Assembly: GCA_965140785.1 (NCBI GenBank)
Contig: OZ223481.1
Coordinates: 352,001 to 416,000 of the forward strand
DNA length: 64,000 bases
Reading direction: 5' to 3'
From: an uncultured Ruficoccus sp.
GTDB taxonomy: Bacteria > Verrucomicrobiota > Verrucomicrobiia > Opitutales > Cerasicoccaceae
Positions 33,960 through 37,343 of the stretch are shown here, piece by piece; within the stretch, counting starts at the first letter, position 1; the number at the start of each line of letters is the position of its first letter. The translations under genes and the position numbers were made by a program. The notes beneath the pieces are model-generated. The model had not been told where the DNA came from. It saw nothing but the letters and a program-made list of their open reading frames with translations, and made no database searches.

Positions 33960-36900
33960 TCAGGCCCCGTGCGCGATAGCACCGGCGTAGGTGTAGCCGC
34001 CGCCGAAGGCGACCAGGCCGTACTTGGCGCCGGGGCTGATGCGGTGCAGGTTTTCCTCCAGGCACAGCGGGATGGAGCTGGAGGAGGTGTTGCCGGTCAG
34101 CTTGACGTTGCGCCAGACGCGCTCGGGGTCGATGTGGAGCTGGCGGGCCACCGCGTCGAGGATGCGGTCGTTGGCCTGGTGGGGGATGATGCCCTCCAGG
34201 TCGGTCGGCGGCGTGTCGCACTGCTCGCAGACGGTTTCGAGCATCTGGCGCATCTTGCGCACGGCCTTCTGGAAGACCCGCCCGCCGCTCATGGAGATCT
34301 TGTTCGTCGGATCTGGCAGGGGGACGGAAAGGAATTCGCCGGTCTCGCCCTCGGCGGCCAGGGCAGGCTGGTGCAGCCAGAATTTCGGTTTGTCGGCTAC
34401 GCCGGAGCCTTCGAGGAGGGTGGCGGTGGCGGCGTCGCCGAAGAGGATAGCCGTGTCGTAGTCCTCCATGTTGAGCAGCGAGCTCATCACTTCGGAGGTG
34501 ACCATGAGTACGCGAGCATCCGGGCGGGTGTGGAGGAAGTCATAGGCCAGCGAAAGGCCGTAAAGGTAGCCGGAGCAGGCCGCGCTGATGTCGAAGGCCG
34601 GGCATTCGTAGTCGCCGCCGACGGCGTGCAGCAGGCGGCAGGCGAGCGAGGGCGTCGCGATGTCCGGCGTCGTGGTCGAGCAGATGACCAGGTCGATGTT
34701 TTCGATCGACATGTCGAGGTTGGTCAACAGCCGGGTGGCCGCATCGACGGCCAGGGTGAGCACGTTCTCGCCTTTGGAGACCCAGGGGCGGGAGTGGATA
34801 CCGCACTGGCGGATGAGTTTCTCCTCCGTGCTGTCCGGGAAAAGTTTCAGCAGCTCGGCGTTGGAAACCTGGCGTGAGCCGCGGGAGGAGGCGATCGCGC
34901 TCAGGCCTACGTAACGGGTCTGCGGGCTGACAATGGCGGGCGCTTCCACCGTGGCGGCTTCGGCGGGCCTGGCCGGTTCGGAAAGCAGGTACGGGGTTTC
35001 CTTGACGCGGCGGGCGGAGTCGGCGGCGGCTGCGATCTCGTTGGCCACGCGCAGGCGCAGGATGGGCGCGCCCACGCGGACGGTGCCCCCGGCCTCGACG
35101 AGGATTTCCTCCACCGTGCCGCTCTGCGGGGAGAGCAGGTCGGCGGCGGCCTTGTCGGACTCGAAGACACCCAGCACGTCGTCCACCTTGACCTCCTTGC
35201 CTGGTTCGGTCAGCCATTCGGCGATGGTGACGGAGTCGTCGGAGGCCGAGACGCCGAGGGCGTTGATGGTAAAGAGTTGGTCGTCATCCCCGGCTTCGCG
35301 CTTCCAGCCGATCTCGAGCTTGAGCAGGTCGGCGGCGGCAGTGACGATGCTGCGCATCGAGGGCAGCGTCTCCAGGTGGCTGGGGAAGTGGAAGGGCACG
35401 TAGGTATCGGCCCGGGCCACGCGGCGCACGGCGACGGGGCGCTGGGCGGCCTCGACCACGGCGGCGCAGATTTCCGCGCCGGGGCCGTAGGAGAGGGAGT
35501 CCTCGTGGACGACCACGAGCTTACCGGTTTTTTCCGCCCAGGCGGTGACAAGGGGCTTGTCCCACGGGCTCAGGCTGCGCAGGTCGATGACCGCGCTGGA
35601 GACCCCAAGCGTGTCGAGGGCCTCGGCGGCCTCCTCGCACAGCGAGACCGTGTTACCCCAGCCGACCAGGGTCAGGTCCGTGCCCTCGCGGGCGAGGCGG
35701 GCGCGTCCGGCGGGAACCCAGTGCCGATCGATGTCGGCGGAGGTGGACAGGCCGCGGTTGTTGAGGAGGTTTTTCGGGTAAAAGAAGACCGAGGGGCGGC
35801 GCGAGGCGAAGGCTGCCCGGAGCATCCCGGCGGCATCCCCGGCGTTCGAGGGCATGAAGACATCCACGCCGGGGCTGTGGGCGGCGATGGCCTCCATGGT
35901 CTGCGTGTGGGTGGGCCCGGTGCCGGGCCGGTAGCCACCGCAGGAGACCATGAGGATGACAGGGGCTTCCCACTCCCCGGCACTGCGCCAGTAGGTGATG
36001 GCCAGCTCGCTGTGGAACTGGTTGTAAACCATGGGGAAAAAGTCGGCGAACTGGACGAAGGCCACGGGCTGGCCGCCGGCCATGGCGCGGCCGATGGCGG
36101 TCCCGATGATGGTGGACTCGGCCAGGGGCGCGTTGCGCACGCGTCCGGGGTGCGCGGTGGAGAGACCCTTGGTCACGCCGAAGGCGTCGCCCTTGGGGTC
36201 CTCGATGTCCTCGCCGTACAGGCTGACGGCGGGGTTGGTCTCGAGCTGCTCCTTGAGCACGGCGACGATGGACTCGCGCATGGAGAGGTCGGCGGCACCG
36301 TCCTTGCCGGTGTATTCCTTGTTGGAAAGGTAGTGCGAGGACAGGGGGCGCTTGACCTCGGGGGCGAGGGCGGGCGCGGGGACCTTGCGGGAGTCCTCGG
36401 CGGCGGCTTCGGCCTGCTCGCGGCACGCCTGGTCGATCTGTTTGACCTCATCCTCTGAGAGACCCAGCTCGACGAGCTTCTGGGCCAGCAGGGCGATGGG
36501 ATCGGCTTCCTTGACGATCTGGTCGATCTGTTCAGGTGTGCGGTAAAGGCTCTGGTCGTCGGCGTTGGAGTGGCTGCCGAGGCGCTCGGCTTCGACCATG
36601 ACGAGGGCCGGGCCGCGGTCTTCACGCATTTTCGCGCAGACCTTTTCGAAGCCTGCGCGCATGGCCAGGGCGTCGCGACCGCTGAGGCGGGTCATTTCGA
36701 GGCCGAAAAGCTCATCGTGCCGCTTGCCGCCGGGCAGGGAGTAGAAGGTCTTGCCCTCGGTCACGGTGGAGAGGGCGAAGTGGTTGTCCTGCACGACGAA
36801 GAGGACGGGCAGGTGGTCGCGCACGGCCTCGGCCACGGCCTCGAAAAAGTCCCCCTGCTGGGTGCCGCCGTCACCGATGGAGCAGTAAACGATGGGCTTC

Positions 36901-37343
36901 TCCGGCTGGTCCTTGACCTGGGCGGCCACACCGACGGAGGGCAGCAGGTTGTTGGAGACGGAGGTGGGCATGGTCATCACATGCAGCTCGCGGTCGGAGT
37001 GCATGGTGTTGAGCTGGCGGCCCTTGGAGCTGGAACGGGCGTTGCCGAAGAGCGCGTCGAAGATCGTCTCGGGTTTGATACCGCGGGCCAGTTGCAGGGC
37101 GCGGTCGCGGTAGTGGCAGTGGAGCCAATCCTGGGGCCCGAGGAACTCGGCCAGCGCGGCCAGAGCCTCGTGCCCGGCGCATTCGACGTGGAAGAACGCT
37201 TCGCCGCGCTTGATCAGGCGGGCTTCGAGGCGCTCGATTTCGCGCGACAGCCGCATCCAGCGGTACAGCGCACGGGCAGCGTCAAGGACGGAGGCGTCGG
37301 AAGCCTGCTCGGGTTTCGAAGAGGTGTGCAGTGGTTGCTTCAA
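33960..37343 (-). CDS. Fusion of 2-oxoacid dehydrogenase E1 alpha + E1 beta + lipoyl domain + beta-ketoacyl-ACP synthase III (FabH)
   Basis: GDG...QDN TPP motif, RLGSHSNADD, GEDI/PLAES (E1 beta), FESDKA (lipoyl Lys), AACSGY/PHQAN/GNTSS (FabH Cys-His-Asn). Confidence 0.9.
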   Translation of the reverse strand: MKQPLHTSSKPEQASDASVLDAARALYRWMRLSREIERLEARLIKRGEAFFHVECAGHEALAALAEFLGPQDWLHCHYRDRALQLARGIKPETIFDALFGNARSSSKGRQLNTMHSDRELHVMTMPTSVSNNLLPSVGVAAQVKDQPEKPIVYCSIGDGGTQQGDFFEAVAEAVRDHLPVLFVVQDNHFALSTVTEGKTFYSLPGGKRHDELFGLEMTRLSGRDALAMRAGFEKVCAKMREDRGPALVMVEAERLGSHSNADDQSLYRTPEQIDQIVKEADPIALLAQKLVELGLSEDEVKQIDQACREQAEAAAEDSRKVPAPALAPEVKRPLSSHYLSNKEYTGKDGAADLSMRESIVAVLKEQLETNPAVSLYGEDIEDPKGDAFGVTKGLSTAHPGRVRNAPLAESTIIGTAIGRAMAGGQPVAFVQFADFFPMVYNQFHSELAITYWRSAGEWEAPVILMVSCGGYRPGTGPTHTQTMEAIAAHSPGVDVFMPSNAGDAAGMLRAAFASRRPSVFFYPKNLLNNRGLSTSADIDRHWVPAGRARLAREGTDLTLVGWGNTVSLCEEAAEALDTLGVSSAVIDLRSLSPWDKPLVTAWAEKTGKLVVVHEDSLSYGPGAEICAAVVEAAQRPVAVRRVARADTYVPFHFPSHLETLPSMRSIVTAAADLLKLEIGWKREAGDDDQLFTINALGVSASDDSVTIAEWLTEPGKEVKVDDVLGVFESDKAAADLLSPQSGTVEEILVEAGGTVRVGAPILRLRVANEIAAAADSARRVKETPYLLSEPARPAEAATVEAPAIVSPQTRYVGLSAIASSRGSRQVSNAELLKLFPDSTEEKLIRQCGIHSRPWVSKGENVLTLAVDAATRLLTNLDMSIENIDLVICSTTTPDIATPSLACRLLHAVGGDYECPAFDISAACSGYLYGLSLAYDFLHTRPDARVLMVTSEVMSSLLNMEDYDTAILFGDAATATLLEGSGVADKPKFWLHQPALAAEGETGEFLSVPLPDPTNKISMSGGRVFQKAVRKMRQMLETVCEQCDTPPTDLEGIIPHQANDRILDAVARQLHIDPERVWRNVKLTGNTSSSSIPLCLEENLHRISPGAKYGLVAFGGGYTYAGAIAHGA

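Follow-up and report, generated by a model that had tools for sequence, protein, structure and literature searches.

A fused E1alpha-E1beta-lipoyl-KAS III protein of an uncultured Ruficoccus sp. and its possible role in starting fatty acid synthesis without coenzyme A

We analysed a stretch of 64,000 nucleotides (hereafter the window) from the genome of an uncultured Ruficoccus sp. (assembly GCA_965140785.1, contig OZ223481.1, positions 352,001 to 416,000), in which one gene encodes the alpha and beta parts of a 2-oxoacid dehydrogenase E1, a lipoyl domain and a FabH-like beta-ketoacyl-acyl carrier protein (ACP) synthase III (KAS III) on a single polypeptide. We give about an even chance to the proposal that this fusion represents a third, coenzyme A (CoA)-free route for starting type II fatty acid synthesis, that is, a homodimeric 'mini-complex' in which the ketosynthase replaces the E2 acyltransferase and is primed from the acyl-lipoyl group, and which has spread by transfer across the Verrucomicrobiota, Kiritimatiellia, Spirochaetes, some Pirellulaceae and the Rhizobium tropici group. 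As for the chemistry itself, the sequence comparisons described below incline us towards a passage of the acyl group from the lipoyl arm to the KAS III cysteine, followed by its condensation with malonyl-ACP.

The reading frame of the fusion gene was translated without any internal stop, and six Pfam domains were recognised along the protein: E1_dh (residues 28-324, E 4e-44), Transket_pyr (353-528), Transketolase_C (546-656), Biotin_lipoyl (705-764, PF00364, E 2.5e-13), ACP_syn_III (917-980) and ACP_syn_III_C (1040-1123). The same Pfam scan of the 1127-residue protein gave neither a 2-oxoacid_dh (PF00198, E2 catalytic) nor an E3_binding (PF02817) match. A first-pass annotation of this DNA had described a single uninterrupted frame with an intact thiamine pyrophosphate (TPP) motif, a lipoyl lysine in ESDKA and a KAS III Cys-His-Asn triad; the open reading frame (ORF) listing and the stop-free translation bore out the former, and all the latter were located (G157-D158-G159 with N187, K731 and C923/H1055/N1085, respectively). 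Its remark that neither an E2 catalytic domain nor an E3 or ACP lies alongside agreed with the Pfam domains of the protein, with its neighbours, among which no E2, E3 or ACP gene was found, and with the flanking gaps, which contained no plausible small or ACP-like ORF.

Of 8000 candidates scored in a whole-length protein search, 1724 proteins reached E <= 1e-3. The best 120 of these relatives were 1094-1166 residues long, with identities down to 45-46%, and the same six Pfam families were present in 120/120; their source names included Ruficoccus (90% identity), Puniceicoccales, Opitutales, Planctomycetaceae, Pirellulales, Spirochaetaceae and KSB3. All residue frequencies given here refer to 120 family members, the identical protein P0002 having been left out. 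When one genome per species was scanned, at least 672 stretches were found to encode a relative, not all of which need be fusions. The best 79 of these loci all carried the fused gene, which was essentially full length in 72 and cut by contig ends in 7. Their hosts were Verrucomicrobiota, Kiritimatiellales/Pontiella, Spirochaetaceae/Alkalispirochaeta, Pirellulaceae, Sumerlaeota, Armatimonadota, a Xenococcus, Devosia and the cultured rhizobia R. rhizogenes, R. tropici, R. leucaenae, R. lusitanum and R. freirei. The survey of domain architecture proposed in the first-pass annotation thus returned the fused form in each of these best proteins and best loci. The spread was patchy: the fusion occurred in 18 of the 151 genomes of a Verrucomicrobiota-level sample, and in a Planctomycetota sample the KAS III domain matched none of the 150 other genomes at E <= 1e-55.

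G157, G159, N187, H258, E409 and K731 were conserved in 120/120 members and D158 in 117/120, and H479 was invariant in the 48-sequence family alignment A1. H258 of E1alpha and E409 and H479 of E1beta presumably act in TPP activation and reductive acylation, as do their counterparts in the branched-chain 2-oxoacid dehydrogenase (BCKDH) and pyruvate dehydrogenase (PDH). Judged by its domains, TPP motif and active-site residues, the N-terminal half of the fusion is an E1 of the heterotetramer (alpha/beta) type. The curated PDH E1 models remained far below their cut-offs (TIGR03181, 176 vs 411; PRK11892, 187 vs 454; PRK09212, 156 vs 321), and on these scores the fusion E1 is a subfamily of its own. 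The closest solved structure was the Thermus thermophilus branched-chain E1 (1UM9_A for alpha, 2e-34; 1UM9_B for beta, 1.5e-46), followed at similar scores by the Pseudomonas putida and human BCKDH and PDH E1s. The residue preceding K731 was D in 59 members, T in 41, A in 8, S in 7 and E in 5, and the following one was A in 72, S in 47 and N in 1. These surroundings fit the lipoyl-type turn, (D/T)-K-(A/S), and not the biotinyl M-K-M, and the Biotin_lipoyl module is predicted to be a lipoyl domain.

The C-terminal module (residues 810-1123) matched the NCBIfam model PRK09352, beta-ketoacyl-ACP synthase 3, with 264.2 bits against a cut-off of 249, and TIGR00747 (fabH) with 230.8, below its cut-off of 292.1. 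It could be aligned to E. coli FabH (1HN9) across the whole domain with about 30% identity (E 6e-45). C923, H1055 and N1085, which correspond to Cys112, His244 and Asn274 of the E. coli enzyme, as well as R1060 (Arg249), presumably the ACP-docking arginine, were present in 120/120 members, and Asn247 in 119/120. From their conserved residues all four modules look active. In the part of the FabH literature cited here, the adenine of CoA is described as stacked between Trp32 and Arg151 and hydrogen-bonded to Thr28, and the phosphopantetheine as contacted by Arg36 and two Asn residues (PMC4606726). In the fusion family, Trp32 and Arg151 were missing in 120/120 members (Table 1). As a control within the same genomes, the stand-alone FabH of all 18 fusion-bearing genomes of the Verrucomicrobiota-level sample was inspected, and it had T28, W32, R36 and R151 in 18/18 and F87 in 17/18; since the canonical enzyme retains the clamp, its loss is specific to the fused copy. 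By this alignment the adenine clamp, and with it the acyl-CoA donor site, is not present in the KAS III of the fusion. The loss of the clamp together with the conserved ACP-docking arginine would be expected if CoA had ceased to be the acyl donor and malonyl-ACP were still the partner.

When only the KAS III domain was used as the query, most of the matches were fragments from contigs of 1-4 kb. On long metagenome contigs we observed a few short proteins consisting of lipoyl and KAS III domains (P0127, P0152, P0163, P0167, P0213 and P0232, 416-470 residues) or of KAS III only (289-346 residues, with P0128, P0138 and P0195 at 315-346), and these share the non-Trp/non-Arg signature of the fusion. 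Several begin inside E1beta or inside the lipoyl domain, and they may be true split forms or may have miscalled starts.

The genomes of the Verrucomicrobiota-level sample show what looks like a natural domain swap. In 22/151 genomes, almost all from the order to which the window belongs, we found a frame of 1013-1140 residues matching residues ~8-775 of the fusion at 36-39% identity (in one of the 22 the frame was 1597 residues long with an internal stop). The two that were checked by Pfam (L093:5515-8562:- and L094:5806-9036:+, from genomes G054 and G060, 1015-1076 residues) contained E1_dh, Transket_pyr, Transketolase_C, Biotin_lipoyl and 2-oxoacid_dh, with no E3_binding match in either; the remaining ones are inferred to be E1alpha-beta-lipoyl-E2 chains from the length of the frame and from the E2 counts. 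Genomes with such a chain had three E2 domains, and one had four, compared with two in the five genomes of the same order with neither fusion. In one further genome a fused E1alpha-beta precedes an E2 of the classical kind, which includes an E3-binding domain. The KAS III fusion and the E2 fusion occurred together in 0/151 genomes; since related genomes are not independent, we note this exclusivity as a pattern and give it no statistical weight. On these architectures there is a series running from E1alpha-beta plus E2, through E1alpha-beta-lipoyl-E2, to E1alpha-beta-lipoyl-KAS III, and since E1alpha-beta-lipoyl-E2 forms a single chain in relatives within the order, KAS III stands in the place of the normal acyltransferase.

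In the genome of the window itself (4.36 Mb, 90.85% complete), the only E2 catalytic domains were those of a PDH operon (E1alpha, E1beta, E2) and of sucAB-lpd, and E1_dh was confined to the PDH E1alpha, SucA and the fusion gene. Two matches to TIGR01350 (Lpd) above the cut-off were found (C30 and C27), neither of them adjoining the fusion gene. A canonical plsX-fabH pair was also present, together with three further KAS III-like genes whose surroundings look like those of secondary metabolism. The numbers of E2 domains in the 18 fusion genomes of the sample were 2, 2, 2, 2, 1, 4, 1, 3, 1, 0, 2, 2, 1, 2, 1, 1, 1 and 2, that is, two or fewer in 16/18; G065 was the genome with none, and the single E2 of one Pontiella genome was of the AceF type, beside AceE.

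Taken as a mechanism, these observations would be accommodated as follows. The E1alpha-beta part, with TPP and Mg, would decarboxylate a 2-oxoacid and reductively acylate its own lipoyl lysine, K731; the S-acyl-dihydrolipoyl arm would then swing on the linker into KAS III, where the acyl group would move to Cys923 by thioester exchange. KAS III would decarboxylate malonyl-ACP (by means of His1055 and Asn1085, with the ACP held at Arg1060) and condense it with the acyl group, giving a 3-oxoacyl-ACP for type II fatty acid synthesis, and a free dihydrolipoyl dehydrogenase, possibly the product of one of the two genomic Lpd genes, would re-oxidise the lipoyl arm. Neither an E2 acyltransferase nor an acyl-CoA intermediate would be required. 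By analogy with known enzymes the likely unit is a homodimer, because E1alpha-beta and KAS III are both two-fold symmetric. An AlphaFold2 (AF2) model computed with alignment A1 had a mean pLDDT of 88.7 and a pTM of 0.69, with values under 50 only at residues 1-14 and 792-808; the protein is modelled as four folded modules plus one clearly flexible tether directly ahead of KAS III. The distance between the lipoyl domain and KAS III is only 48 residues, and among the 120 members this segment is 39-85 residues long (median 45), with a small motif in which P784 is invariant in alignment A1.

The direct, CoA-independent transfer from the lipoyl arm to the KAS III cysteine had already been put forward in the first-pass annotation. 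The conserved catalytic residues, the loss of the CoA-adenine clamp, the exchange of the E2 domain and the lack of a third E2 in the Ruficoccus genome speak for it, all of them indirectly; its strict independence from an E2 is less secure, because at least one E2 was present in 17/18 fusion genomes and could act in trans. Several further points weigh against it. Four E2 domains were counted in Rhizobium rhizogenes and again four in an Alkalispirochaeta genome, and since some carriers hold three or four, the replacement of a BCKDH E2 is not a universal pattern. Arg36, which contacts the phosphopantetheine, has an Arg counterpart in 71/120 members, and Trp32 and Arg151 could equally be absent from KAS III enzymes that use other acyl donors, which makes their loss suggestive and no proof. 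As the protein has no E3-binding domain, re-oxidation of the arm must rely on the free Lpd. Finally, in the AF2 model no more than a few residues separate the lipoyl domain from E1beta, which may limit the reach of K731 to both active sites. A complex prediction with two KAS III copies and the lipoyl domain gave ipSAE values of 0.00 and 0.00, which we counted neither for nor against direct transfer.

Two other explanations concern the role of the KAS III module and the substrate of the E1. The first, which we consider rather unlikely, is that the KAS III module is not a primer synthase for bulk lipids, and serves as a non-condensing acyltransferase to ACP or another acceptor, or else makes the starter of a specialised lipid such as an amino lipid or one of the alkyl-resorcinol type, in which case its pathway would be an accessory one. 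The canonical FabH found in 18/18 fusion genomes implies that the fusion is not needed for bulk initiation; the patchiness of the family, seen in the Planctomycetota sample above, the score below the TIGR00747 cut-off and the position of the gene next to olsE, an ornithine-lipid modifying gene, in the Rhizobium loci (see below) are in line with such a role. The invariant Cys-His-Asn triad and ACP-docking arginine argue against it, His and Asn being needed for malonyl decarboxylation, as do the PRK09352 score, which passed its cut-off, and the failure to find a neighbour family common across phyla, which leaves no evident dedicated pathway partner. Under the direct-transfer proposal, the fusion enzyme would work beside the ordinary FabH and not instead of it, and would probably supply a second class of primer.

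The second explanation is a pyruvate-specific E1, by which acetoacetyl-ACP would be formed from pyruvate itself, a straight-chain route that avoids acetyl-CoA. It bears on the substrate only, is compatible with direct transfer, and seems improbable to us. The best NCBIfam names for the E1 part are PDH E1 models, all far under their cut-offs as given above. The module is 34-43% identical to the fused, BCKDH-like E1alpha-beta proteins, vs 25.5% and 28.0% to the PDH E1alpha and E1beta of its own genome, its best solved relative is a branched-chain E1, and a complete PDH as well as a canonical FabH are already encoded by the genome. Scores against PDB and NCBIfam entries were also tried as a guide to the substrate and were set aside, since they did not clearly separate BCKDH from PDH and only the relative identity leans to the BCKDH side. 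Phe87, which we take to restrict E. coli FabH to small primers, is replaced by Thr, Ser, Val or Ile in 120/120 members, and these small residues suggest room for more than an acetyl group. Because the E1 module groups with the fused BCKDH-like proteins, a branched or other short aliphatic 2-oxoacid is the most likely substrate by sequence similarity, 2-oxoisovalerate being the best single guess.

Even-numbered iso fatty acids derive from an isobutyryl primer. Metagenome-assembled genomes of Pontiella carry the KAS III fusion, and the major acids of this genus, in the part of the source cited here, are i-C12:0, i-C14:0, C18:0 and i-C18:0 (PMC7356697); iso-C14:0 is likewise given as a major acid of Coraliomargarita in the cited portion of another description (PMC10288369). 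In the same portion the predominant acids of the Cerasicoccaceae (Cerasicoccus and Ruficoccus) are C14:0 and C18:1w9c (PMC10288369). These straight chains fit pyruvate and weigh against a branched product. The chemotaxonomic signals on branched chains are thus mixed, and the branched-chain role proposed in the first-pass annotation is weakly supported, with the iso acids of Pontiella in its favour and the profile of the window's own family against it. To our knowledge neither the Rhizobium tropici group nor the Pirellulaceae are known for branched fatty acids, which also counts against a branched product.

The least probable of the alternatives in our judgement, and one that we doubt strongly, is a CoA-dependent channel in which a separate E2 (of PDH, 2-oxoglutarate dehydrogenase (OGDH) or BCKDH) moves the acyl group to CoA, KAS III uses the acyl-CoA and the fusion provides proximity only: the E2 domains of most carriers, the arginine often kept at position 36, the nearly invariant Asn247 and the established use of acyl-CoA by FabH enzymes fit it, but the adenine clamp kept by canonical FabH is lost in every fused copy, the protein has no peripheral-subunit-binding partner domain, no dedicated E2 was found in the Ruficoccus genome or in the Pontiella genome mentioned above and none at all in G065, and it is hard to see why, across phyla, a lipoyl domain should be fused to an enzyme with which it has no contact.

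The coordinates of the gene, its modules and the adjoining elements are collected in Table 1. The TTG proposed as the start was the sole ATG, GTG or TTG codon 5' of the first conserved helix; as the first ~25 residues are not conserved among the 120 members, the exact start of translation is the least certain point. On the 5' side the gene is preceded, also on the minus strand, by genes for a solute-binding protein, a CobW-like GTPase and an ABC ATPase, and on the 3' side it is followed by a gene for a permease of the Asp-Al_Ex family at 32817-33476 (-). Promoter/terminator and Rfam scans of the flanks gave no sigma-70-like promoter and no Rfam element 5' of the fusion gene. The palindrome in the upstream gap reads TTTGACAG-4 nt-CTGTCAAA and could be an operator or mark the end of the ABC ATPase gene that precedes this gap. 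The inverted repeat beyond the stop codon occurred only once in the 4.36-Mb assembly and did not have the T-tail pattern of a terminator; it is a candidate for the end of the transcription unit.

Table 1. Features of the fusion gene, its flanks and the residues aligned to the CoA site of E. coli FabH
Feature	Position in the window	Strand	Remarks
Whole gene, E1alpha-E1beta-lipoyl-KAS III protein, 1127 aa	33960..37343	minus	stop codon 33960-33962; TTG start 37343-37341
E1alpha module, residues 28-324	36372..37262	minus	Pfam E1_dh; TPP/Mg motif G157-D158-G159...N187; His258 in HS..DD motif
E1beta module, residues 353-656	35376..36287	minus	Pfam Transket_pyr + Transketolase_C; Glu409 in PLxE motif; His479
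Lipoyl domain, residues 690-765	35049..35276	minus	Pfam Biotin_lipoyl; AF2 strands 690-765; K731 in ESDKA
Linker, residues 766-811	34911..35048	minus	helix 769-777; short conserved strand 782-786; disordered 792-808
KAS III (FabH-like) module, residues 812-1127	33963..34910	minus	PRK09352 match; triad C923/H1055/N1085
K842 (E. coli Trp32)			120 members: D88/E16/K9/G3/S2 (top five), never Trp
Y962 (E. coli Arg151)			120 members: F64/Y23/P20/L7/A2 (top five), never Arg
T897 (E. coli Phe87)			120 members: T104/S10/V5/I1
Q846 (E. coli Arg36)			120 members: Arg kept in 71
Perfect 28-nt inverted repeat, 12-nt loop	33753..33820		~140 nt past the stop codon
Gap upstream of the fusion gene, 256 nt	37344..37599	minus	holds the 8+8 palindrome 37486-37505

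Just ahead of the permease gene, at 33505-33577 (-), we observed a sub-threshold match to the cobalamin riboswitch (RF00174; 29.1 bits vs a gathering threshold of 31.5, E 1.1e-4, model positions 45-169). Two other unusual fusions were seen in the window, both in a Mn/Zn-type ABC transporter: an ABC-3 permease with the C-terminal domain of an iron-dependent repressor (27673-29136, -) and a ZnuA-like binding protein with an ABC ATPase (29133-31172, -).

An argument from operon partners was tried and abandoned, because blastp clusters of the ORFs from the 79 loci gave no family common across phyla; the largest clusters of neighbours, a PtsP-like protein (14 loci) and aconitase (13 loci), were both divergent, and the fusion gene looks like a stand-alone unit. 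In the Rhizobium-type loci a gene for a di-iron fatty-acid hydroxylase (PF04116) lies directly 5' of the fusion on the same strand in 11/11 cases (L058:8749-9744:+ of R. tropici, and L030, L031, L038, L042, L043, L045, L048, L049, L053 and L063). The one hydroxylase tested was an equivalog-level match to OlsE, the ornithine-lipid hydroxylase (551.6 bits vs a cut-off of 475). This olsE-type neighbour points to membrane-lipid biology, in one clade only. A conserved protein of 309 residues belonging to no known family was also observed 3' of the fusion in 6 Rhizobium-type loci.

In full-text searches, whose scope left out most subscription journals, no paper on an E1alpha-E1beta-lipoyl-KAS III fusion was found. 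The protein combines known modules in a new coupling and is predicted to provide a ketosynthase with a new donor. Bacterial fatty acid synthesis is started from an acyl-CoA primer by FabH, and the exceptions that we know of, FabY and malonyl-ACP decarboxylase, use no lipoyl carrier. If the proposal is true, a ketosynthase can be supplied from an acyl-lipoyl arm, a 2-oxoacid dehydrogenase is able to work without an E2 core, branched or unusual primers enter lipids bypassing the CoA pool, and the choice of primer is made among 2-oxoacids. Oku and Kaneda reportedly observed in 1988 that 2-oxoacids were better primers than acyl-CoAs for branched-chain synthesis, and their proposal would be revived. 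The fusion would also be a compact, one-gene tool for making branched or odd fatty acids from 2-oxoacids. Because its carriers include cultivable and genetically tractable rhizobia, the direct transfer is open to direct test.

Among known systems, the nearest precedent by analogy for a lipoyl-mediated, CoA-free loading of a biosynthetic machine is QncN/QncL/QncM. In the part of the source cited here, an acyl unit is placed on an ACP by a thiamine diphosphate enzyme together with a lipoyl domain, and both QncN/L/M and SclQ1-4, of the tetrahydroisoquinoline and scleric-acid pathways, deliver a two-carbon unit (as glycolicacyl-ACP) to a carrier protein and not to CoA (PMC6335953). The Qnc system differs from the fusion in using an E2-type acyltransferase domain as catalyst, an ACP as acceptor and a ketose phosphate as substrate, with no ketosynthase, whereas the fusion protein has no PF00198 domain and no ACP-like ORF alongside. 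A tblastn search of a plasmid collection gave no full-length relative of the fusion. It did match, over residues 30-764 and with 36-37% identity, fused alpha-ketoacid dehydrogenase alpha/beta proteins on plasmids of Streptomyces xanthii (NZ_CP061282.1) and Streptomyces sp. NBC_01361 (NZ_CP109590.1), which continue into an annotated non-ribosomal peptide synthetase and are likely a Qnc-type acyl-loading module.

The E1alpha-beta-lipoyl-E2 chains found at the level of the Opitutales, on which we know of no publication, no search for one having been made, have the same domain order as the KAS III fusion through the lipoyl domain and likewise no E3_binding match, but they end in 2-oxoacid_dh, which forms acyl-CoA, and have longer linkers ahead of the lipoyl domain. 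Compared with a classical complex of E1, E2 and E3, the fusion protein lacks a cognate E2; only the PDH E2 and SucB are found in its genome, and Lpd is present. The E. coli-type FabH (1HN9) has the triad, Asn247 and Arg249 in common with the KAS III of the fusion, but in the latter Trp32, Arg151 and Phe87 are replaced throughout the family and the domain sits behind a lipoyl domain. The system closest in its overall result is that of Bacillus, Staphylococcus and Listeria, in which a BCKDH complex (E1alpha2beta2, E2 core and E3) supplies FabH. Like the fusion, it relies on a TPP-dependent alpha/beta E1 with the same catalytic residues, on a lipoyl-lysine carrier and on a Cys-His-Asn KAS III working with malonyl-ACP, and it turns a 2-oxoacid into a 3-oxoacyl-ACP, as is predicted for the fusion. 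In contrast, the fusion has no E2 catalytic domain, E3-binding domain or multimeric E2 core, its KAS III is devoid of the residues that bind the CoA adenine, and all its modules are on one chain, on which the acyl-CoA step is predicted to be skipped.

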